A stretch of DNA of 11,873 nt from a virus (lineage: Duplodnaviria; Heunggongvirae; Uroviricota; Caudoviricetes), in the IMG/VR virus record IMGVR_UViG_2695420792_000013, positions 1 through 11,873 of that record. One strand, written 5' to 3'. Every line of letters starts with the position of its first letter. Within the stretch, counting starts at the first letter, position 1. Of the stretch, positions 1 to 10,440 are shown piece by piece. The translations under genes and the position numbers were made by a program. The notes below the pieces were generated by a model, which had not been told where the DNA came from, did not search any database, and worked only from the letters and a program-made list of their open reading frames with translations.

Positions 1-318
1 ATGAAAAAGATAGCTGCTATATCATTAATTAGTATTTTTATTATGTCTGGTTGTGCTGTGCATAATGATGAGACAAGTATCGGTAAATTTGGTCTTGCAT
101 ATAAAAGTAATATTCAGCGTAAACTCGATAACCAATACTACACCGAAGCCGAAGCTTCTTTAGCCAGGGGTAGAATATCTGGTGCAGAAAATATAGTAAA
201 AAATGATGCAACTCATTTCTGTGTTACTCAGGGCAAAAAAATGCAAATAGTTGAGCTGAAGACAGAAGGTGTAGGATTACATGGTGTCGCTCGTCTGACA
301 TTCAAATGTGGAGAGTGA
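1..318 (+). CDS. Putative lipoprotein, host-side flanking gene
   Basis: 105-aa ORF with an N-terminal hydrophobic signal-like segment ending in a cysteine (IFIMSGC), consistent with a lipobox. Lies outside the prophage, left of the att core. Size and position would fit yegR beside the K-12 P2 remnant, but that is recalled synteny only. Confidence 0.55.
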   Translation: MKKIAAISLISIFIMSGCAVHNDETSIGKFGLAYKSNIQRKLDNQYYTEAEASLARGRISGAENIVKNDATHFCVTQGKKMQIVELKTEGVGLHGVARLTFKCGE

Positions 319-380
319 GAATATTTTTTGGTAAGCGTCAAATATGCGCGTTCTGGCTGTGCGTAGCCGGAACCTGTGGG

Positions 381-413
381 AGCACGATGCCGATAAGTGA
401 AAGGCATCGTGCT
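381..413. repeat. Perfect 11-bp inverted repeat (AGCACGATGCC-N11-GGCATCGTGCT)
   Basis: Seen directly in the sequence. Sits in host-side DNA between the lipoprotein gene and the att core. No U-tract follows on either strand, so it is not a classic intrinsic terminator. Confidence 0.5.
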
Positions 414-477
414 ATGAAGGAGGATTCTATCGATGTGGTCAATGGAAGACGGTTACCAGAGATAGGGCTTATGCATA

Positions 478-504
478 AAAAAATAAGCCCGTGTAAGGGA
501 GATT
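478..504. other. P2-type attachment-site core (attL junction)
   Basis: AAAAAATAAGCCCGTGTAAGGGAGATT matches the 27-bp P2 att core as I recall it. It lies about 80 bp beyond the 3' end of int, as in P2 attP. Confidence 0.5.
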
Positions 505-583
505 TAGGGTGTCACCAGTAGGGGCTTTCAACGGTACAATGCGGGTTTGAGCGGCATAAATTACCACTGAAAGCCCTTAAACG

Positions 584-1597
584 TTACTCTACTGTGGACA
601 CTGTGTGGACACTCTCGGCCTCAGTACCACCTCTTAGCGGATTAAGAGAAATGGCGTCCTGAAGGTACTCTGGCGCAAAATGAGCGTAAACCATAGTTTG
701 CTCAATCCGCGTGTGACCTAGTATCCGTTGTAGCGTGATAATACTTCCTCCATTAATCATGAAATGAGTGGCAAAGCTGTGCCTTAGTGCATGTGTGGCT
801 TGCCCCATTGGCAAATCCGGTTTTATTGCTTTCATTGTTCGTCTGAAGCGAGGGTAATCAGCATCAGGGAATAAAAAACCTCGTTTGTTATCCGCGATCA
901 TTTTGGCAACAGCCTCTGAGATCGGGACGGTGCGTGGTTTGTTTGTTTTCGTTTTAACAAACGTGACGCGGTTATGGATGATATTTTCTGCTTTCAAACG
1001 AGCTGCTTCTCCCCAACGTGCTCCAGTACTCAGGCAAAGAATCGCAATCTTTTTGTTGTCGCCGTCAAGAGCAGCAAGCAGTAAGGCAATTTCTTCCTGC
1101 GTGAGATAGCCTGTGTCTGGTTTTTCCTCCTTAAGCCTTTTTGTCCCTCTGATAGGGTGCTCACCAAAGAATAACTCCGCTTCAATCAGGGCTGTAAACA
1201 TGCCGCTAATACATGTTAAATCACGATTGATACTCGAAGGTTTAATACCCTGACTTCTTCGGGTGGCGCAGTACTGGCTGATAAGCGATTTCGTAATTTG
1301 AAATGCGCATGGGTCATTCGTTATTTTTGTGAAGATTTCAATTTTTCCAAGATTAGATTTCCCATGCTCTTCGTGTTTACCCTTTAAATCCCACCAGATC
1401 TGTGTCAGCTCCGACAGACGTCGCTTGTCTGTTGGTTTTGATAGCCATTCTTTATTGTGGTGGTTGTACAACGTGTATTTCTCGAAAGCGACAGCTTCGC
1501 TTTTCTTATCAAACTTCCTACGGATGCGTTTTCCATTACGTCCAGTAGGGCGGATGTCCACTTCATATCGACCATCATCGAGTTTTTTGATTGCCAT
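584..1597 (-). CDS. int: Tyrosine site-specific integrase, P2 Int-like
   Basis: 337-aa ORF, the same length as P2 Int. Carries a tyrosine-recombinase C-terminal signature (HALRHSFATH ... LGHTRIEQTMVYAH). Sits next to the att core and is co-oriented with the repressor gene. Confidence 0.9.
   Translation of the reverse strand: MAIKKLDDGRYEVDIRPTGRNGKRIRRKFDKKSEAVAFEKYTLYNHHNKEWLSKPTDKRRLSELTQIWWDLKGKHEEHGKSNLGKIEIFTKITNDPCAFQITKSLISQYCATRRSQGIKPSSINRDLTCISGMFTALIEAELFFGEHPIRGTKRLKEEKPDTGYLTQEEIALLLAALDGDNKKIAILCLSTGARWGEAARLKAENIIHNRVTFVKTKTNKPRTVPISEAVAKMIADNKRGFLFPDADYPRFRRTMKAIKPDLPMGQATHALRHSFATHFMINGGSIITLQRILGHTRIEQTMVYAHFAPEYLQDAISLNPLRGGTEAESVHTVSTVE
593..611. promoter_or_regulatory. 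Tandem TGTGGACA direct repeats, candidate Int arm-type binding sites
   Basis: Two exact TGTGGACA copies at 593-600 and 604-611, 11 bp apart, overlapping the 3' end of int next to the att core. Confidence 0.4.
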
Positions 1598-1651
1598 CAG
1601 AAAACCCTCCGAGTGGTGTGTTTTTTTGCGACTACTAATCGCTTTTTTCGT

Positions 1652-1672
1652 GGTGGCTGAAATTTAGCCACC
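1652..1672. repeat. Inverted repeat GGTGGCT-N7-AGCCACC in the C-int intergenic region
   Basis: Seen directly. A 12-bp perfect palindrome TGAATATATTCA follows at 1691-1702. Both lie between C and int and could be an attenuator or a protein-binding site. Confidence 0.35.
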
Positions 1673-1712
1673 AATAGTAGGCACTTGTGATGAATATATT
1701 CACGATGAATTG

Positions 1713-2012
1713 TTAACCAGTCTTTTGACCGGAGTGGGGTGACGTTGTTTCGTTTTGCCCAAAGTGTGCGAGAGCGGGCGCAATTTGCCCGGACTCAGGA
1801 GCGATCTGATTGGTCATGAACCATAAAGTGTATTTGGTGAATTGTGGGGTCTGCAGGATGTTCATCATGACATCTGTTGGAGGTGTTGAACGACCACTTT
1901 CATAGTAACTCAGCGTGCCATACGGAACCCCTGTTAAATCAGCAAGTTGTTGTCTGCTCAAATACTCTGATTTTCGCATTAAGACTATCTTCTCGCTTAT
2001 CGTGTTTGACAT
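1713..2012 (-). CDS. C: Immunity repressor, P2 C-like
   Basis: 99-aa ORF, the length of P2 C. Contains an HTH-like segment (LSRQQLADLTGVPYGTLSYYE). Divergent from cox and upstream of int in the same orientation, which is P2 immunity-region synteny. Confidence 0.75.
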   Translation of the reverse strand: MSNTISEKIVLMRKSEYLSRQQLADLTGVPYGTLSYYESGRSTPPTDVMMNILQTPQFTKYTLWFMTNQIAPESGQIAPALAHFGQNETTSPHSGQKTG

Positions 2013-2126
2013 GGTGTTTAGATCTCAATAGTATTTAGTTTAGATGTAGATTGTTTAGTGCTTGGATGTGGGCACTAAAAGGCATTATAAGACATTAAAC
2101 GCAATTCATGAGGGCTAGAGGACGAC
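2013..2126. promoter_or_regulatory. Divergent promoter/operator region (Pe/Pc-like)
   Basis: Intergenic region between divergent C and cox. Contains repeated TTTAG-containing units (about 2013-2021, 2032-2046, 2052-2060) and an 8-bp inverted repeat TTTAGTGC-N10-GCACTAAA (2054-2079). Exact -10/-35 boxes not assigned. Confidence 0.5.
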
Positions 2127-2402
2127 ATGAGCAAGCAAGTAACACTCATGACTGATGCGATTCCTTATCAGGAGTTCGCAAAACTAATAGGAAAATCGAC
2201 AGGAGCGGTTCGTCGGATGATCGATAAAGGAAAGCTGCCTGTAATTGATATGACCGATCCACAATCAGCTTCAGGTCGTGCAGGTGAATATTGGGTATAC
2301 CTTCCGGCATGGAATAACGGACTAAAACTGGCTTATGAAAGCCGCCCTAAAGAGATTCGTGACGGCTGGTTGATGTGGTTAGGTCTCGGTGAACCACGTT
2401 AA
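2127..2402 (+). CDS. cox: Cox-like excisionase / directionality factor and transcriptional regulator
   Basis: 91-aa ORF, the length of P2 Cox. First gene of the rightward early operon, directly opposite C. Confidence 0.75.
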   Translation: MSKQVTLMTDAIPYQEFAKLIGKSTGAVRRMIDKGKLPVIDMTDPQSASGRAGEYWVYLPAWNNGLKLAYESRPKEIRDGWLMWLGLGEPR

Positions 2403-2412
2403 GGAGAACCGT

Positions 2413-2583
2413 ATGAATGAGCCTCGTTGTATTGCTCAGTTACTGCGTAACGAAAGCCCCAGGGCGATTGACTTCACCATCACCCATGGTAAGGGGCGTA
2501 AGGGAATCATTATCCGCACCAAAAAACAGAGTCCGTTAAAAAAGGCTCTGACCTTTCTGAAAAGCCGGAGGGTATGGAAATGA
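2413..2583 (+). CDS. Small hypothetical protein (P2 orf78 position)
   Basis: Listed ORF is 2389-2583. The start is more likely the ATG at 2413, which follows an AAGGAG Shine-Dalgarno at 2401-2406. Positional equivalent of the small ORF between cox and B. Confidence 0.45.
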   Translation: MNEPRCIAQLLRNESPRAIDFTITHGKGRKGIIIRTKKQSPLKKALTFLKSRRVWK

Positions 2584-3080
2584 CAGTGATGACGCTCAAT
2601 CTCGTTGAAAAACAGCCAGCAGCTATGCGCCGGATAATTGGTAAGCATCTTGCCGTTCCTCGCTGGCAGGATACATGTGATTATTATAATCAGATGATGG
2701 AGCGCGAACGGCTAACAGTTTGCTTTCATGCGCAGTTAAAACAGCGTCACGCAACGATGCGTTTTGAAGAAATGAACGACGTCGAACGTGAACGACTGGT
2801 ATGTGCAATTGATGAATTGCGTGGGGCATTCTCAAAACGTCGTCAGGTCGGTGCAAGTGAGTATGCATATATTAGTTTTTTAACAGTCAGTCAGCGTCGT
2901 ACTTTATTTATGCATGCCGGATTGACTGAAAAAGAATTCAACCAGCCATACTGGCGAATTAATGAAGAGTCATGTTACTGGCGTGATGCTTTATTCCGTG
3001 CATTACGTGAATTATTCAGCCTGTTTGAGTATGCACCGACAATTCTGACATCGGTAAAACCAGAGCAATATCTGCATTAA
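2574..3080 (+). CDS. B: Replication protein B-like
   Basis: 168-aa ORF (P2 B is about 166 aa as I recall) in the expected slot between cox and A. Start could be one of the first three Met codons. Confidence 0.7.
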   Translation: MEMTVMTLNLVEKQPAAMRRIIGKHLAVPRWQDTCDYYNQMMERERLTVCFHAQLKQRHATMRFEEMNDVERERLVCAIDELRGAFSKRRQVGASEYAYISFLTVSQRRTLFMHAGLTEKEFNQPYWRINEESCYWRDALFRALRELFSLFEYAPTILTSVKPEQYLH

Positions 3081-3134
3081 GTAATTAACCAGAGTTTTTA
3101 ACGCACTTAATTGTGCGGGGCTTCTTTTTGCCTG

Positions 3135-3368
3135 GAGAAAGTCATGCATACAGTTTCTGAAAATCAGTGCGGTAAATACGCATTACTGCTGCAACAGGCC
3201 AGAACCGAAGCACAGGCCGACGCAGCGACGCGCTTTTCTTCTCATCTTGACGCCATGATTCGCCACATCACAAAGGCGGAGTTATCCCGCGTGGAGATAG
3301 TCGAGCTGCTCAGTCAGGAGTCGGAAAAATTTCACAACATCGGATTGTCTCGCGGGGAGGTGCTTTGA
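3135..3368 (+). CDS. Hypothetical early protein (P2 orf80 position)
   Basis: Listed ORF starts at 3111. The ATG at 3135 is preceded by GGAGAAAGTC and is the more plausible start. The stop overlaps the next start (ATGA-type coupling). Confidence 0.5.
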
Positions 3369-3670
3369 TGTCCTGTTCTCGTTCAGTTGTTTTACTGAAC
3401 AATGCCTTAAAAATCGCCGTTATGAAAAATGGCGATTTGTCTCTTATTCAACTTGGTCTTGATAAAGAAAAACGCGAAATAACTGAATCTGTTATCGCGA
3501 TTTATCAGAGTGAATTAAACCTCCTGTCTGATGTGGTCAATTTACTTGTTAAACGCGCTGTATTTCACAAGCAAATTTCCTCCGTGGATGAACTGACGAC
3601 ATTAACGACAGAAATCGCCAGCTATTGCGCTGATGAATTTAAAAAACTGAACGACAAAAGGAACTGGTAA
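3365..3670 (+). CDS. Hypothetical early protein (P2 orf81 position)
   Basis: 101-aa ORF, tightly packed with its neighbours in the early operon. Confidence 0.55.
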
Positions 3671-3894
3671 TGCCGGACAACGTAGATTTTATTCAGGAAC
3701 AACAGGCTGAATTACTGGAGCGCCAGATTAACGCGGCAAGGGTAAAACATTGCGGTGCTTCTGCGCTGGTTTGCGAAGAGTGTGACGCGCCAATACCTGC
3801 TGCCCGTCGTGCGGCTTATCCGTCAGCCACGCGTTGTGTTTCCTGTCAGGCAGTCTTTGAAGCAAAAAACAAACATTACCGGAGAACGGCATGA
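3670..3894 (+). CDS. C4-type zinc-finger protein, TraR/DksA family (P2 orf82 position)
   Basis: 74-aa ORF with CxxC-N17-CxxC (CEECDAPIPAARRAAYPSATRCVSCQ), typical of phage TraR-like proteins. Confidence 0.7.
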   Translation: MPDNVDFIQEQQAELLERQINAARVKHCGASALVCEECDAPIPAARRAAYPSATRCVSCQAVFEAKNKHYRRTA

Positions 3895-4166
3895 GTATTC
3901 GTATTGAAATTGGCGAACGTTATGTCGTTACCAGTGACAGCTTTCAGTTTATTCTCCACGAGAAAAAGAGAGCGGAAAGCGGTAAAAACGCCGGTCAGGA
4001 ATGGCTGGCGGTGGTTGGTTATTACCCGAAATTAAGCCAGCTCGTTTCCGGCCTGATGCATCACGATATTCTGACCGGAAGCGCAAAATCTTTTGCCGAT
4101 TTAAACGTGCAGGTTGAGCAACTCAGCAGGCGTTGTTCAGAGGCTTTTGGCTCATATGGACGTTAA
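3891..4166 (+). CDS. Hypothetical early protein (P2 orf83 position)
   Basis: 91-aa ORF with start overlapping the previous stop, directly upstream of A. Confidence 0.5.
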   Translation: MSIRIEIGERYVVTSDSFQFILHEKKRAESGKNAGQEWLAVVGYYPKLSQLVSGLMHHDILTGSAKSFADLNVQVEQLSRRCSEAFGSYGR

Positions 4167-6279
4167 AGCCTCCGGGCGTTTTGTCCCTCCGTCAGCATTT
4201 GCCGCAGACACCGGTAAGACGTTTACCGGTGCTTATGCATGGAACGCGCCACGCGAGGCTGTCGGGCGCGAAAGACCCCTTACACGTGACGAGATGCGTC
4301 AGGTGCAAGGTGTTTTATCCACGATAAATCGCCTGCCTTATTTTTTGCGCTCGCTGTTTACTTCACGCTATGACTACATCCGGCGCAATAAAAGCCCGGT
4401 GCACGGGTTTTATTTCCTCACATCCACTTTTCAGCGTCGTTTATGGCCGCGTATTGAGCGTGTGAATCAGCGCCATGAAATGAACACCGACGCGTCGTTG
4501 CTGTTTTTGGCAGAGCGTGACCACTATGCACGCCTGCCGGGAATGAATGACAAGGAGCTGAAAAAGTTTGCCGCCCGTATCTCATCGCAGCTTTTCATGA
4601 TGTATGAGGAACTCTGCGATGCCTGGGTGGATGCGCATGGCGAAAAAGAATCGCTGTTTACGGATGAGGCGCAGGCTCACCTGTATGGTCATGTTGCTGG
4701 CGCTGCACGTGCTTTCAATATTTCCCCTCTCTACTGGAAAAAATACCGTAAAGGGCAGATGACCACGAGGCAGGCATATTCTGCCATTGCCCGTCTGTTT
4801 AACGATGAGTGGTGGACTCATCAGCTTAAAGGCCAGCGTATGCGTTGGCATGAGGCGTTACTGATTGCTGTCGGGGAGGTAAATAAAGACCGTTCACCTT
4901 ATGCCAGTAAACATGCTATTCGTGATGTGCGTGCGCGCCGCCAGGCAAATCTGGAATTTCTTAAATCGTGTGACCTTGAAAACAGGGAAACCGGCGAACG
5001 CATCGACCTTATCAGTAAGGTGATGGGCAGTATTTCTAATCCAGAAATTCGCCGGATGGAGCTGATGAACACCATCGCCGGAATTGAGCGTTACGCCGCC
5101 GCAGAGGGTGATGTGGGGATGTTTATCACGCTGACCGCGCCGTCAAAGTATCACCCGACACGTCAGGTCGGAAAAGGCGAAAGTAAAACCGTCCAGCTTA
5201 ATCACGGCTGGAACCATGAGGCATTTAATCCAAAGGATGCGCAGCGTTATCTCTGCCGTATCTGGAGCCTGATGCGCACGGCATTCAAGGATAATGATTT
5301 ACAGGCCTACGGTTTGCGTGTCGTTGAGCCACACCACGACGGAACGCCGCACTGGCATATGATGCTTTTTTGTAATCCACGCCAGCGTAACCAGATTATT
5401 GAAATCATGCGTCGCTATGCGCTCAAAGAGGATGGCGACGAAAGAGGAGCCGCGCGAAACCGTTTTCAGGCAAAACACCTTAACCGGGGCGGTGCTGCGG
5501 GGTATATCGCGAAATACATCTCAAAAAACATCGATGGCTATGCACTGGATGGTCAGCTCGATAACGATACCGGCAGACCGCTGAAAGACACTGCTGCGGC
5601 TGTTACCGCATGGGCGTCAACGTGGCGCATCCCACAATTTAAAACGGTTGGTCTGCCGACAATGGGGGCTTACCGTGAACTACGCAAATTGCCTCGCGGC
5701 GTCAGCATTGCTGATGAGTTTGACGAGCGCGTCGAGGCTGCACGCGCCGCCGCAGACAGTGGTGATTTTGCGTTATATATCAGCGCGCAGGGTGGGGCAA
5801 ATGTCCCGCGCGATTGTCAGACTGTCAGGGTCGCCCGTAGTCCGTCGGATGAAGTTAACGAGTACGAGGAAGAAGTCGAGAGAGTGGTCGGCATTTACGC
5901 GCCGCATCTCGGCGCGCGTCATATTCATATCACCAGAACGACGGACTGGCGCATTGTGCCGAAAGTTCCGGTCGTTGAGCCTTTGACTTTAAAAAGCGGC
6001 ATCGCCGCGCCTCGGAGTCCTGTCAATAACTGTGGAAAGCCTGCCAGCAGTGATACTTCGTTACCGGCTCCCACGCCTTCTGAACATGCCGCAGCAGTGC
6101 TTAATCTGGTAGATGACGGTGTTATCGAATGGAGTGACCCGGAGGTTGTGAGGATTCTAATGGTAGTGTTAAAAGGAGGGGAAGCATACAAAATCAACAA
6201 CGAAGACGATTATCACCGCAAAGTGCCGAACAAGTCAGCTCAGTGGCTAAAACAAAGAATAAATAGAGTGGGTAACTAA
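4114..6279 (+). CDS. A: Rolling-circle replication initiation endonuclease, P2 gpA-like
   Basis: 721-aa ORF. HUH motif HWHMML at 5350-5367. Paired catalytic tyrosines in YIAKYISK (Y codons at 5503-5505 and 5515-5517), the phiX174/P2 gpA signature. True start may be the ATG at 4156, which would minimise overlap with the upstream ORF. Confidence 0.9.
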   Translation: MSNSAGVVQRLLAHMDVKASGRFVPPSAFAADTGKTFTGAYAWNAPREAVGRERPLTRDEMRQVQGVLSTINRLPYFLRSLFTSRYDYIRRNKSPVHGFYFLTSTFQRRLWPRIERVNQRHEMNTDASLLFLAERDHYARLPGMNDKELKKFAARISSQLFMMYEELCDAWVDAHGEKESLFTDEAQAHLYGHVAGAARAFNISPLYWKKYRKGQMTTRQAYSAIARLFNDEWWTHQLKGQRMRWHEALLIAVGEVNKDRSPYASKHAIRDVRARRQANLEFLKSCDLENRETGERIDLISKVMGSISNPEIRRMELMNTIAGIERYAAAEGDVGMFITLTAPSKYHPTRQVGKGESKTVQLNHGWNHEAFNPKDAQRYLCRIWSLMRTAFKDNDLQAYGLRVVEPHHDGTPHWHMMLFCNPRQRNQIIEIMRRYALKEDGDERGAARNRFQAKHLNRGGAAGYIAKYISKNIDGYALDGQLDNDTGRPLKDTAAAVTAWASTWRIPQFKTVGLPTMGAYRELRKLPRGVSIADEFDERVEAARAAADSGDFALYISAQGGANVPRDCQTVRVARSPSDEVNEYEEEVERVVGIYAPHLGARHIHITRTTDWRIVPKVPVVEPLTLKSGIAAPRSPVNNCGKPASSDTSLPAPTPSEHAAAVLNLVDDGVIEWSDPEVVRILMVVLKGGEAYKINNEDDYHRKVPNKSAQWLKQRINRVGN

Positions 6280-6443
6280 ACTCGCTTTGTTTTAGTTTGT
6301 GAATATATGAGACTGGACGCTGAAACCTGACGAGTAGGTTTGTGAGAATGATGATCTATTTGCATTGAGATAATATGTTAAGTTATAGGCTTTCTGCGTT
6401 AGTGCACTTCCCCCCCCCAACCGTAGCAGGGGGAGGTAAAGGG

Positions 6444-7298
6444 TTAAGCAAATCTTAATATTTCTTTAGGTATGGGAGTTGCACAAGCTAATCTTCGTCT
6501 TTCTAACATTAAAGGATCCTTAGTAATTTTCAAATTATTATTGACGGATAAATGTGATTTTAAGGATGACAACCAGAGCTTAATGAACTCAAAGACATAT
6601 TTACCCTTAATGGCTCTTTCGTACGGTAATTCATTGAAGAATGAAATCAATGCTTTTACATCCTCTGAGTCTTCATTTACTTCATAATCTATTAACGTAG
6701 CATTATCCTTGATTGAGATATTTTTATACTCAATATTGATAACTGAAGATATTTTATTGTAGAATTTTGTTTTCCCGTTTGCATTATGATTTACAAATAG
6801 AGGTCGGCATAATTCTTTTGCTAACTTTTGAAATAGTTGGAAGTCGGACTCAAAATCTTTTTTGATACGCGCCAATAAATCAGACTGTGTTATATCCATT
6901 TTGAACTCGTCCTTTAAATAGCTTTTTGTAGAGGAAGAGTTAATAATATAGTTTTCAATTGAATAACATGAAAGAGTAACAATGTTATCAGAATTATGCT
7001 CAAATAGGTCAAAGTCATGATCTACAAAAAAGTAGCAATTGCTTAATATTTCTTGATCATTATGTTGAATTGCATGCTCGTATAACTCAATTATCTGTTT
7101 TTTTCCTTTCGCCACAAGGTGGCCTGCATTAGCATACTCTGGATTGTGTTTCATCCATTCATCGTATACAGGGTAATCATCAACACCTTCAAAAACAAAA
7201 ATTTTATCGAAGGATGATGTTTTAAGTAATATCTCTTGCTTTAACGGATTTCTCGAAAAAGCTTCTTTTTTCATAGTATGTAGGAGATTGTTACTCAT
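6444..7298 (-). CDS. TOPRIM-like (DUF4435-like) nuclease, AriB-like effector candidate
   Basis: 284-aa ORF. TOPRIM-style motifs: IFVFEGVDD (Glu codon at 7188-7190) and FFVDHDFD (DxD at about 7014-7022). Start ATG shares one base with the upstream ATPase stop. Strongly AT-rich coding sequence. Confidence 0.7.
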   Translation of the reverse strand: MSNNLLHTMKKEAFSRNPLKQEILLKTSSFDKIFVFEGVDDYPVYDEWMKHNPEYANAGHLVAKGKKQIIELYEHAIQHNDQEILSNCYFFVDHDFDLFEHNSDNIVTLSCYSIENYIINSSSTKSYLKDEFKMDITQSDLLARIKKDFESDFQLFQKLAKELCRPLFVNHNANGKTKFYNKISSVINIEYKNISIKDNATLIDYEVNEDSEDVKALISFFNELPYERAIKGKYVFEFIKLWLSSLKSHLSVNNNLKITKDPLMLERRRLACATPIPKEILRFA

Positions 7299-8764
7299 CA
7301 GACACTACCCTTTCGTACTTTCATAGCAGTTGCATAAGGGTCTAGCTCATTGTCAAATATGAATGGTGAATGCGTTATGGCAATTATTTGCCTAACATTT
7401 TCACCCGCATTCAAATCTGGTAATATCATCCGTTGCCACTCTATCGATAACGAAAGTTCCGGTTCATCTATTAATATTATTTTAGGGGTATTATCATTAA
7501 GATAAATCGTAGCCATTAGCGAAATTACTTGTTTCTCACCTGAAGATAAGTCATTAAGAGAGATGCGATCTCCTGTATATGTATCTTTTACGATAACTTC
7601 TAATCTTTGAGGATCAAATTTTAGAGATTTAGAATCACCTGCTGATGAAAGATATTTATCACAAACAGCAACGAATTTCTCAATTTTTGACTCTTGCTCT
7701 TTTGTTTCTTGTATAACCGAGTTTAATTGAGTTAAAAAATATTTCAAGTAAGTGATGTTTTTTATTTCATCTTTGTTATATAGCAATTTAAGCGAATCAA
7801 TTAAAGATTTCTTTTTTGATTCAGATGCTCTTTTTTCTCGCAAATTTGTACCAGTATCCTCAACTCGATTAAGGAATCTTTCCAAATCCTCTATAGAAGG
7901 TAGTGCATTTTGTTCTTTAGCTATCCGCTCATTGTTACCATATTTAATTAAATCCTCAAGCATTTTGGCACTTAAAGATCTATAGCCAAGGTTTGATGTC
8001 CTTTCAATTTCTAAAGTTAGACCTTTTAAAGCATCTTCGACATCCTTTAACCCATATGAAATGCCATCACGTTGTAGTTTCATCCCTCTTTTTCTACCAA
8101 ACATGCGAGGGTGAAGATTTTCTCTTTCTTCCCTAGGTGTCGTCTCAAAACTTTTTTCTACCCTTCGATATGTTGGTAGAAATATAACGTCTAAATCCCT
8201 AAGCGCTTCAGCAACCACTCTAAAATTATTATTTTTAGAGTAATGCATTTTTAAATTATGCTGTTCCTTATTCTTCATTTTATTAACTATGTTGTCTTTT
8301 AGTTCTCTTAGAAAATGATTTATATAATCCTTTGGGTATTTTACGGTATTATATAGGTCATTGACTAAAGCATCATCATTGAATTCATTTTGCTTCGAGT
8401 CAATTAAAGTCTTCGCAAACTTGGTAATATCACGATCATCCCAAAATGACTCATTAAGAGAAAATCTTTCATTGAGGAATGCTTTTATTTCACCAAAAGG
8501 TATTAAAGATGCTCTTTCATTTTTAATTTCAACCTCCTCATGACCAAGAATCTTTATGAATATTGATTTAAAATCAATTCTCATAAGGTTTGTAAAATCT
8601 TGCTCGAGAAGAAGTCTTATAGCATTAAGTATGGTTGTTTTTCCTGCGCCGTTCTCGGATACGAAAACTGTTGTCTTGCCTTTCATTTTCATAGTTATAT
8701 CTTTATAACCATGAACTCCTGTCATTCTAAAATATTCAATCGGGTAATTATTACGTGTAGTCAT
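7298..8764 (-). CDS. ABC-type ATPase with coiled-coil insertion, AriA-like
   Basis: 488-aa ORF. Walker A ENGAGKTT (codons at about 8633-8650). Signature-like LSSGEKQ. Walker B IILIDEPE (D-E codons at 7463-7468). H-loop ITHSP. A long K/E/L-rich middle segment suggests a coiled coil. AGGAGA Shine-Dalgarno 4 nt upstream of the ATG. AT-rich. Confidence 0.75.
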   Translation of the reverse strand: MTTRNNYPIEYFRMTGVHGYKDITMKMKGKTTVFVSENGAGKTTILNAIRLLLEQDFTNLMRIDFKSIFIKILGHEEVEIKNERASLIPFGEIKAFLNERFSLNESFWDDRDITKFAKTLIDSKQNEFNDDALVNDLYNTVKYPKDYINHFLRELKDNIVNKMKNKEQHNLKMHYSKNNNFRVVAEALRDLDVIFLPTYRRVEKSFETTPREERENLHPRMFGRKRGMKLQRDGISYGLKDVEDALKGLTLEIERTSNLGYRSLSAKMLEDLIKYGNNERIAKEQNALPSIEDLERFLNRVEDTGTNLREKRASESKKKSLIDSLKLLYNKDEIKNITYLKYFLTQLNSVIQETKEQESKIEKFVAVCDKYLSSAGDSKSLKFDPQRLEVIVKDTYTGDRISLNDLSSGEKQVISLMATIYLNDNTPKIILIDEPELSLSIEWQRMILPDLNAGENVRQIIAITHSPFIFDNELDPYATAMKVRKGSV

Positions 8765-9010
8765 TATGTCTCCTTTCGTCTACATTACTAAAATCAGTTA
8801 GTCAATTTTCTTAAAAACTAAAGTAACAGAAGCTTTCGATATATTTGAACAGCTAATTCATACAGCAAAGTCAAACTTAATTCAACTATCCATCAGGCGG
8901 TGCACGATTCGTACAGCGCAACCCACAGTTGATTCAACTCGGATTATAATAATTGCAGATATTTTTTGCGATTTCCAGTGGCTACTAGTCATTTTATTGT
9001 GATCCCTAAA

Positions 9011-9029
9011 CCACCTCCTGGGGAGGTGG
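9011..9029. repeat. Subterminal palindrome of the IS200-like element (left)
   Basis: Perfect 8-bp stem with 3-nt loop, seen directly. Confidence 0.6.
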
Positions 9030-9117
9030 TGATTGATCCTGTAAGGCTATAGCCTGAAGAATGCCCATGTCGGAATATCTCTGCTTACTCACCACAAGTA
9101 AAAGGAGACAAACTGAC

Positions 9118-9552
9118 ATGGGGTTTTACAGAAGTTCATCATATGTATATTGGCGTTGCAAATATCACATAGTCTGGACGGCAAAGTACCGTTTTAGGAT
9201 CCTGAGGGATAAATTGGGCAAGGAGCTGTACAGAACCATCTATATTCTTTGCGGAATAAAAGATTGTGAGGTTCTGGAGTTAAATGTACAGGCAGATCAT
9301 GTGCATCTTGTCGTAATAGTGCCGCCAAAAATCTCAATATCTACTCTGATGGGGCACCTGAAAGGTCGCAGTGCAATCAGACTCTACAATCGATTCCCGC
9401 ATATCAGGAAGAAGTTATGGGGAAACCATTTTTGGTCGTGGGGTTACTTTGTTGATACGGTAGGCGTGAACGAAGAAATTATCAGACGATATGCGAGGTA
9501 TCAGGAAAAGATGGAGCAAACACATGAACAGCAGATGGAGTTGCTAGAGTAG
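9118..9552 (+). CDS. tnpA: IS200/IS605-family Y1 (HUH) transposase TnpA
   Basis: Motifs CKYHIVW, HUH in HVHLVV, and catalytic Tyr context WGYFVDTVG. Listed ORF starts at 9061, but the ATG at 9118 follows an AAGGAGA Shine-Dalgarno and gives a family-typical 144 aa. A GC hairpin at 9572-9589 follows the stop. Confidence 0.8.
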   Translation: MGFYRSSSYVYWRCKYHIVWTAKYRFRILRDKLGKELYRTIYILCGIKDCEVLELNVQADHVHLVVIVPPKISISTLMGHLKGRSAIRLYNRFPHIRKKLWGNHFWSWGYFVDTVGVNEEIIRRYARYQEKMEQTHEQQMELLE

Positions 9553-9600
9553 AAAACGGAATATGACATTCGCCCCCCTTATAGGGGGCATTCTGAAAAG

Positions 9601-9619
9601 CCACCTCCTCAGGAGGTGG
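9601..9619. repeat. Subterminal palindrome of the IS200-like element (right)
   Basis: Perfect 8-bp stem with 3-nt loop, near-identical to the left copy. Confidence 0.6.
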
Positions 9620-9752
9620 TCTTTTACTTCTACTGTGTTTGATGCATGAATTTGCATTCGAGTTTTTCTGAGCGTTGCCTTGTCAGTTGTAGGTCTTGTG
9701 GGGTTGGGGTGGCCTAATGCAACTGCATTATTAGCGCCCTATGAAGCGGGCG

Positions 9753-9771
9753 GGCGAGGCGGGGAAAGCAC
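9753..9771. other. P2-type cos site (19-nt cohesive-end sequence)
   Basis: GGCGAGGCGGGGAAAGCAC matches the P2 cohesive end as I recall it. The flanking sequence resembles the P2 genome termini, and it lies just upstream of the 3' end of portal gene Q, as in P2. Confidence 0.6.
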
Positions 9772-9913
9772 TGCGCGCTGGCGGTGGTGCTGATTTTATT
9801 TTTTCAGCGTCTGAGCGCGTTGTGATGGCGTTTAGATTGTTCGCCGGGGCGTTGGTGTGTATGCGGGCTGTTTTGTGCGGTGGTGAGCGTGTGAGGGCGT
9901 GATGGCGGGGTGT

Positions 9914-9935
9914 AAAAAAGCCGCCCGCAGGCGGC
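9914..9935 (-). terminator. Intrinsic terminator downstream of Q (minus strand)
   Basis: On the minus strand: GCCGCC-TGCG-GGCGGC stem-loop followed by TTTTTT, immediately after the Q stop codon at 9941-9943. Confidence 0.6.
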
Positions 9936-9940
9936 GATGT

Positions 9941-10440
9941 TCAGCCGTTGTCAGTGTCCAGTGAGTAGTTTTTAAAGCGGATGACCTCCTGACCGAGCCA
10001 GCCGTTTATCTCGCGGATCCTGTCCTGTAACGGGATAAGCTCATTGCGGACAAAGACCTTTGCCACTTTCTCAATATCACCCAGCGACCCGACGTTCTCC
10101 GGCTTGCCGCCCATCAACTGAAAGGGGATGCGGTGCGCGTCCAGCAGGTCTGCGGCGCTGGCTTTTTTGATATTAAAAAAATCATCCTTCGTTGCCACTT
10201 CACTGAGCGGGATAATTTTAATGCCGTCGGCTTTCCCTTGTGGGGCATAGAGAAACAGGTTTTTAAAGTTGTTGCGGCCTTTCGACTTCACCATGTTTTC
10301 GCGGAGCATTTCGATATCGTTGCGATCCTGCACGGCATCGGTGACGTACATGATGTATCCGGCATGTGCGCCGTTTTCGTAATACTTGCGGCGGAACAGC
10401 GTGGCCGACTCATTCAGCCAGAGCCAAAGGTCGTATTGGT
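9941..10440 (-). pseudogene. Q: Portal protein Q-like gene, C-terminal fragment only (5'-truncated)
   Basis: Listed ORF 9941-10351 (136 aa). The frame stays open upstream to about 10456 without a plausible start. Position and orientation next to cos match P2 Q, which is about 340 aa, so most of the N-terminus is missing. 5' boundary approximate. Confidence 0.6.

Follow-up and report, generated by a model that had tools for sequence, protein, structure and literature searches.

An IS1004-like element of the IS200 group upstream of predicted PARIS-like genes in a P2-like prophage

The locus and its prophage setting

We analysed a stretch of 11,873 nucleotides of viral DNA (IMG/VR record IMGVR_UViG_2695420792_000013), which is called the window throughout. 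Positions 1-10421 of the window match a P2-like prophage of E. coli B7A at 99.7% identity, and the B7A copy adjoins yegR and yegS. From left to right the window carries an integrase gene, a repressor gene, cox, early genes, gene A and two cargo genes on the minus strand; to the right of the cargo genes lie an insertion sequence (IS), the cos sequence and then the 3' part of the portal gene. The features that make up this setting are as follows.

4114-6279: gene A (Pfam Phage_GPA and REP_ORF2-G2P)
6444-7298, minus strand: ariB-like gene for a DUF4435 (TOPRIM) protein (Pfam DUF4435; PADLOC AriB, E 4.5e-18)
7298-8764, minus strand: ariA-like gene for an ABC/AAA_15 ATPase (Pfam AAA_15/AAA_21; PADLOC AriA, E 2.8e-31)
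9753-9771, plus strand: P2-type 19-nt cohesive-end sequence (cos) GGCGAGGCGGGGAAAGCAC, identical to the annotated cosL 1-19 of P2 (NC_001895)

The ariA-like and ariB-like genes are adjacent and have one base in common (position 7298). Because they match the PADLOC models AriA and AriB, we regard these DUF4435 and AAA_15/AAA_21 cargo genes as a predicted PARIS-like defence pair. The ariA-like gene starts with an ATG at 8764 and is transcribed away from the left end of the IS. Both the IS and the cargo are located in the gpA-to-cos defence hotspot of P2-like phages described by Rousset et al. 2022 (PMC9122126), a paper in which the words 'transposase' and 'insertion sequence' are absent.

Other irregularities were observed in this prophage lineage. 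At 10417-10421 the window departs from B7A: midway through the portal gene (Q) it continues with the 3' end of a recombinase/invertase gene, which sits just upstream of the tail sheath gene (10683 onwards), so that ∼14.4 kb of late genes between portal and sheath are missing. None of 5,426 complete E. coli genomes has this junction, which reflects either a deletion specific to the strain, leaving the prophage defective, or an artefact of the assembly or of the window. Gene A is frameshifted in B7A (L001 7164-9259) and was not called in most of ten related prophage loci (L004-L013); L005, L010 and the window have an intact copy. In L013 there is another large deletion, with ogr adjoining a terminase fragment. 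Several members of this prophage lineage are decaying independently.

The transposase gene and its family

The IS carries one gene:

9118-9552, plus strand: tnpA, encoding a 144-aa Y1 HUH transposase with H61, H63 and Y110 (Pfam, NCBIfam, RefSeq)

The open reading frame at 9061-9552 (plus strand) matched Pfam Y1_Tnp (PF01797) with an E-value of 2.3e-37 and 128 bits. RefSeq starts the protein at the in-frame ATG at 9118, which gives 144 aa annotated as 'IS200/IS605 family transposase', and a Shine-Dalgarno sequence (AAGGAG) is present upstream of this ATG at 9103-9108. The tnpA frame is the sole open reading frame of at least 50 aa within the element, which is without tnpB or iscB. Among 86 homologues, the catalytic residues H61, H63 and Y110 are kept in 86, 84 and 75 proteins, respectively, and TnpA could be aligned to the solved structures of the ISDra2, Sulfolobus and IS608 proteins (PDB 2xm3, 2a6m and 2vhg; E 1e-16 to 1e-20). 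The NCBIfam equivalog transpos_IS200 scored 139.9 bits against a cut-off of 55. With this score, and with the HUH histidines and the catalytic tyrosine in place, the IS200/IS605 assignment in the first-pass annotation is well founded. Its remark that the window has a second HUH-endonuclease gene beside the phage A gene is also correct, since the A protein matches Phage_GPA and REP_ORF2-G2P.

Judged by its sequence, the element is a tnpA-only member of the IS200 group (IS200/IS605 family). Of the named elements, IS1004 of Vibrio cholerae comes closest: TnpA relatives listed in their sources as 'IS1004 transposase' share ∼71-86% identity with the protein of the window, and the V. cholerae protein shares ∼74%. 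The features of the IS200 group were all found: a Y1 HUH enzyme, tnpA as the only gene, subterminal hairpins on the same strand, no terminal inverted repeats, no target duplication and a unit that is repeated. The insertion 3' of a short sequence without duplication is approximate for the window copy, as the flanks available for comparison (L023, see below) are only 78-86% identical. The element is already known: it is a standard IS, annotated in public genomes, and is ordinary in this respect. For IS1004-like elements in E. coli, no specific description of the ISfinder type was found in the searchable literature.

The ends of the element and its hairpins

The layout of the element is given below.

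8999-9628 (equally 8998-9627), plus strand: complete IS200-group (IS1004-like) insertion sequence of 630 bp, delimited by copy comparison, the gyrB-yidB site and the L042 junction
9011-9029, plus strand: left-end subterminal hairpin CCACCTCC-TGG-GGAGGTGG, 12-13 nt from the left tip, presumed TnpA binding site
9064-9122, plus strand: stem-loop in the tnpA 5'UTR that pairs the Shine-Dalgarno sequence AAGGAG and the AUG (inverted repeat and RNA fold)
9572-9589, plus strand: G+C-rich hairpin GCCCCC(C)-TTAT-AGGGGGC directly 3' of the tnpA stop codon
9596-9628, plus strand: right end, consisting of an A-tract, the hairpin CCACCTCC-TCA-GGAGGTGG (9601-9619) and then TCTTTTAC(T)

The palindrome CCACCTCC-N3-GGAGGTGG occurs exactly twice in the window and matched none of 200 shuffles. 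The two near-identical 19-nt palindromes between which the first-pass annotation had placed the Y1 gene were both found, at 9011-9029 and 9601-9619, and fold prediction makes hairpins of both in single-stranded DNA. They have the same sequence and both lie on the plus strand; the tips of the element (GTGATCC... and ...TTTTACT) are unrelated, so that it is without terminal inverted repeats. The right end, with its A-tract, hairpin and TCTTTT, has the shape of an intrinsic terminator and was terminator-like in a consensus scan. The putative cleavage site lies 8-9 nt 3' of the right hairpin.

Comparison of copies fixed the ends. In eight unrelated contexts the common sequence runs from ...TTGTKATCCCTAAACC... 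to ...GGTGGTCTTTTACT and the copies diverge outside it. At the gyrB-yidB site an empty allele, in which CCCTTTTTATT is directly followed by TCTGCAATCC, can be compared with the filled allele CCCTTTTTATT-GTTATCCC...TCTTTTACT-TCTGCAATCC; the difference is a 630-bp element without target duplication, and the right flank of the empty allele begins with TCTGC. A Tatumella contig (L042) carries a head-to-tail junction of the IS, TTTTAC joined to TGTCACC, which agrees with the 630-bp ends. The limits remain ambiguous by one T at each end. The first-pass annotation had given 8995-9635; there is indeed an element at this place, but these limits are a few bases too wide on each side. One further option for the left end (option C, with the IS running from TTGT to TTTTA) was ruled out by the gyrB-yidB site and the L042 junction.

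The 5'UTR stem-loop had a predicted folding energy of −34.8 kcal/mol (z = −4.3; RNA fold of 9030-9135). It resembles the translational repression structure of IS200, in which the left-end hairpin is a bidirectional terminator and a second stem-loop sequesters the Shine-Dalgarno sequence (PMC4513863). When the stem was compared between copies by eye, two changes were seen in different base pairs, which does not add covariation support. A scan of 8700-9950 against Rfam (E ≤ 1) returned only a chance-level match to PhotoRC-I (15 bits versus a cut-off of 45), and none of the curated IS200-related RNA families in Rfam matched the IS region.

Copies elsewhere and the insertion at this locus

Of 5,426 complete E. 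coli genomes, 381 had matches to a 641-bp query. These matches amounted to 423 places, at most 9 in any one genome, and 329 of the places were plasmid-borne. Copies of the element with identical ends are found in many contexts, chromosomal as well as plasmid, that are unrelated to each other, and a scan of one genome per species gave 28 further stretches with the element in other species of Enterobacterales. A search of the deposited phage collection with the element (blastn in 'distant' mode) gave no match. The representative of the multi-copy TnpA cluster (P0002) is found on two short contigs and was of little use for the analysis of target sites. Most of the 329 plasmid matches are 5'-truncated copies (query positions 201-634) that abut a gene for a DDE transposase, e.g. 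NZ_CP027438.1 65665-66099; apparently a single truncated IS relic is widely spread with E. coli plasmids.

The sequence to the left of the IS is the putative target at this locus:

8982-8998, plus strand: target site, a weak 5-bp hairpin TGGCT-ACT-AGTCA (one G-T pair) followed by TTTTATT, with the IS inserted 3' of it

The first-pass annotation proposed a comparison with uninterrupted P2-like prophages, and such an empty site exists. It was reached by a protein search for relatives of AriA, followed by a look-up of their contigs. The closest AriA relative (P0121, 92% identical) is encoded on a contig of a P2-like prophage, L023. In L023 the sequence corresponding to the window from 8998 down to 6421, including the ariAB cassette, is 86% identical and directly adjoins the sequence corresponding to 9622-9778 (78% identical), i.e. 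the flanks of the window are contiguous and the 630 bp are absent. Since these flanks are only 78-86% identical, the junction is not placeable to the base at this locus. The uninterrupted homologous site reads CCAGTGGTTACTAGCCATTTTTTTACTCC / TTTTTTTACT, and TTTTTACT in it resembles the last bases of the right end of the IS; loss of an IS by microhomology deletion is therefore a possible secondary origin of the 'empty' site of L023. Searches of the complete E. coli genomes, in near as well as in distant mode, and of the deposited phages gave no uninterrupted site. Only 3 of the 5,426 complete genomes contain the 234-bp left flank and the initial ∼80 bp of the right flank, and all 3 have the IS. 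Taken together, the sequence comparisons support the view that the IS is an insertion in this locus. That it might be native phage DNA is argued against by the recurrence of the whole 630-bp unit in many unrelated contexts and by the uninterrupted site of L023.

History and decay of the window copy

Among the matches listed, all ten contigs with the exact AriA of the window have the IS at the same distance from ariA. Ten prophages share 99.7-100% identity over the IS, the 230-bp spacer and ariAB, while their terminase and portal genes are 97.7-98.5% and gene A and the early genes 97.2-100% identical. As the IS-ariAB block is nearly invariant on backbones that differ by 2-3%, a single insertion, with the block then carried or recombined among backbones, accounts for the pattern. 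These identities indicate that the insertion is old and fixed and happened once.

The protein encoded by the window copy (WP_042815548.1) belongs to an allele that differs from that of the multi-copy form (WP_038989254.1) by 15 nt, of which 12 are in the coding sequence and 7 are non-synonymous (L3F, H9Y, P22A, P59A, R108W, V126A and H128Y). Outgroup copies place at least six of these seven changes on the window lineage. H9, P22, R/K108 and V126 are kept in 76-82 of the 86 homologues and the residue of the window is found in none of them; with H9Y, P22A, R108W and V126A there are therefore four changes at conserved residues of TnpA, which suggests that the copy is decaying. In addition, each of the three complete genomes with the window allele has a single copy, and the derived changes comprise about 7 non-synonymous versus 2-3 synonymous ones, a small count. 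Probably, then, with the counts as small as they are, the window copy is no longer moving and drifts as a decaying passenger.

With high confidence we interpret the element as a 630-bp insertion sequence of the IS200 group that arrived a single time upstream of ariA in the cargo of a P2-like phage and now, most likely, accompanies ariAB as a decaying passenger. By analogy with IS608 and ISDra2, a TnpA dimer would bind the two subterminal hairpins on the top strand and cut single-stranded DNA outside both of them, 12-13 nt from the left hairpin on its 5' side and 8-9 nt from the right hairpin on its 3' side, and the excised single-stranded circle would be inserted, without duplication, on the 3' side of a T-rich target. 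A single event of this kind would have brought the copy to its place 234 bp upstream of ariA, within the gpA-to-cos hotspot cargo, in an ancestor of the module. The IS and ariAB would afterwards have been handed down, and exchanged by recombination among P2-like backbones, as a single block, and with substitutions at about a neutral ratio the copy would most likely be an immobile or weakened passenger. The IS thus provides a convenient lineage marker for the PARIS cargo module, and this marker shows the module exchanged among P2-like backbones as one block.

Neighbouring sequences and alternative explanations

The first-pass annotation gave the distances from the IS as ∼230 bp to the start of the ATPase gene and ∼120 bp to the cohesive end, in good agreement with the measured values of about 234 bp (from 8998/8999 to the ATG at 8764) and about 124 bp (from 9627/9628 to 9753). 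It had also suggested that the insertion could alter expression of the defence operon and interfere with packaging signals close to cos. Neither suggestion is favoured by our comparisons. In the interval on the ariA side we found the following repeats.

8856-8939, minus strand: two ∼30-nt direct repeats AGTTGAAT...GCTGTAyGAAT (AGTTGAATyAA...GCTGTAyGAAT), found by repeat search and conserved in L023

These repeats are of the type TTGAAT-N17/18-TAyGAA, are 51-52 bp apart and lie between the IS and ariA, uninterrupted by the IS, which is about 60 bp beyond them. They are the best candidates for tandem promoters or operators of ariA, which they might form; a consensus promoter scan did not call them. 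The segment from the IS to ariA is 86% conserved with L023. The IS is upstream of the block that is conserved with L023 and holds the candidate promoter repeats, and this position lends no support to an effect on ariAB expression.

An alternative would be that the IS, once fixed, was co-opted as a regulatory part of the PARIS cargo, either, through its terminator-like right and left hairpins, as an insulator of the toxic ariAB genes from late-operon (P-Q) read-through across cos or as a modulator of the ariA promoter through its left end. The strict linkage of the IS to the window allele of ariAB in all contigs among the matches listed, and the maintenance of the module across different backbones, would both be expected if this were so. 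In addition, the right end is terminator-like and the left-end hairpins of IS200 are bidirectional terminators (PMC4513863). A consensus scan placed the tQ terminator, which is annotated in P2, at 9920-9935; because ariAB and Q are on the same strand, read-through past tQ would enter the IS first. However, the IS is missing from L023, although the cassette and the region upstream of it are the same there; the cassette therefore does not depend on the IS, and the insulator role is unsupported. The chromosomal ariAB homologues of Serratia are also without the IS, no outward promoter-like site was found at its left end by the consensus scan, and hitch-hiking of a copy unable to excise explains the linkage equally well. 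We therefore regard co-option as improbable and retain the decaying passenger as our explanation.

We also considered that the IS disrupts the prophage, in its packaging or in the expression of its cargo, and so leads to dead remnants. In favour of this explanation, the window prophage is without ∼14.4 kb between portal and sheath and gene A of B7A is frameshifted, but these defects have no connection with the IS and vary from strain to strain, and the prophages L005 and L010 have an intact gene A. With respect to packaging, conservation among P2-like phages begins at ∼9704-9717, so that the IS, 124 bp from the cohesive end, stays 76-89 bp outside the block conserved around cos; the cos core shared by P2 and P4 is only ∼55 bp (PMC9594776). 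The old-tin transcript of P2 itself begins ∼150 bp away from cos, and cargo regulatory DNA therefore normally fills this interval. Moreover, the module with the IS is present in ten otherwise complete-looking P2-like prophages, on backbones that differ by 2-3%. The location of the IS outside the conserved block and the spread of the module across backbones argue against a packaging defect, and disruption of the prophage is highly improbable.

Finally, it is scarcely credible that the gene is a domesticated RAYT and that the palindromes are not the ends of an IS but REP-like repeats of the host. In favour of this reading, RAYTs too are Y1 proteins related to IS200 with palindromes on either side, solo hairpin stubs do occur in other genomes (see below) and NCBIfam REP_Tyr_transpos gave a weak match. 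This match, however, reached 25 bits versus a cut-off of 80 (and versus 139.9 for transpos_IS200). What is repeated, up to 9 times in a genome and also on plasmids, is the whole 630-bp unit and not just the palindrome; the empty sites (gyrB-yidB and L023) are without the entire unit, and in the window the palindrome is present only at the two IS ends.

The sequence comparisons gave no sign that the IS, as a decaying passenger, affects PARIS expression or packaging. The IS appears to matter little here, as nothing indicates a changed defence system or phage; analyses of the ariAB regulatory region or of the boundaries of the hotspot should be made with the IS masked. Between the IS and cos we observed a palindromic ATGCATGAATTTGCAT motif (9640-9660) and a related AATGCAACTGCAT motif (9716-9728). 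Both are conserved in L023, though they lie outside the block common to most P2-like phages, and they are possible accessory sites.

Target preference and solo stubs in the clade

As a side observation, we compared 34 independent insertion sites of the clade, namely six E. coli or metagenome contexts, the window and the sites from the scan of one genome per species; the left flanks of L002, L003, L015-L019 and L030-L057 and window positions 8982-8998 were scored. Under a strict rule, the IS is inserted directly after the T-tract of an intrinsic-terminator-like hairpin at 25 of the 34 sites (∼30 when judged by eye). In the same loci the strict rule is satisfied by 0.8% of all positions and by 5.4% of T-rich positions. 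Nearly all left flanks at the 34 sites consist of a G+C-rich hairpin and a T-tract; they are T-rich and end with A/T-T, so that the target can be described as a T-tract with AT(T) at its end. The annotated E. coli contexts, six in number (L002, L003 and L016-L019), all have the IS 3' of a gene on the same strand. The target in the window, with its weak 5-bp hairpin and TTTTATT, is atypical for the clade. The right end of the IS itself has the A-tract, hairpin and T-tract shape of the targeted terminators. The orientation of the IS relative to chromosome replication (lagging-strand template) would be consistent with the K-12 map; it was not counted as evidence.

Seven loci carry solo left-end stubs of ∼44 nt (TTGTCAYCCCTAAACCACCTCCTRGGGAGGTGGTGATTGAT) that follow terminators and have no IS body (L030:3727-3770, L036, L038, L040, L041, L045 and L050). 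Every stub ends in ...GGTGGTGATTGAT/T, 8 nt past the hairpin, at the distance that also separates the true right-end cut from its hairpin. The stubs may be footprints of aberrant TnpA cleavage or represent a mini-element. A related structure is found in a chromosomal ariAB island of Enterobacter, where a 48-nt near-perfect palindrome (L024:3518-3565, also in L025 and L026) consists of the left tip of the IS, its hairpin and their reverse complement, ∼450 nt upstream of ariA. The ariAB genes of this island are 77% identical to those of the window at the nucleotide level, and its other upstream DNA is unrelated to the window.

We tentatively propose, as a possibility that we rate below even chances, that the clade recognises a folded intrinsic terminator, inserts a few bases past the foot of its hairpin and leaves or spreads ∼44-nt stubs. 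If true, this would amount to structure-guided targeting of terminators by a Y1 transposase and to a route from an IS to REP-like hairpin repeats. We found neither terminator targeting by IS200-group elements nor solo stubs described in the searchable literature, the scope of which did not include ISfinder and TnPedia, so that their novelty is uncertain. The mildly novel threads are found only in the target preference of the clade and in the solo stubs, not in the locus studied here; the strong preference for terminator T-tracts and the stubs may merit study with respect to single-strand transposition and the origin of REP-like repeats.

Comparison with known systems

IS1004 of Vibrio cholerae, a member of the IS200 group, is ∼628 bp long. 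The window element is similar in being tnpA-only and ∼630 bp long, but it is a distinct element with ∼74% amino acid identity to the V. cholerae protein and is spread through Enterobacterales. [quoted passage not shown] It differs from IS200 in being ∼80 bp shorter and in its hairpin sequences.

The similarity extends to IS608 and ISDra2 of the IS605 group in the TnpA fold family, the subterminal hairpins on one strand and the duplication-free insertion 3' of a short sequence. In contrast to these elements, the window element is without tnpB, and in place of TTAC or TTGAT the target is a T-tract with a final AT(T), in most cases directly 3' of a terminator hairpin. The RAYT/REP systems likewise have an IS200-like Y1 protein between palindromes and solo palindromic stubs in genomes, whereas the window element falls below the cut-off of the RAYT model and is mobile as a whole unit in multiple copies. 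As for the hotspot cargo of P2 (old/tin) and of its relatives (PARIS and others), the cargo of the window is transcribed away from cos in the same way as old-tin in P2; the difference is that here an IS has become a fixed part of one cargo module.
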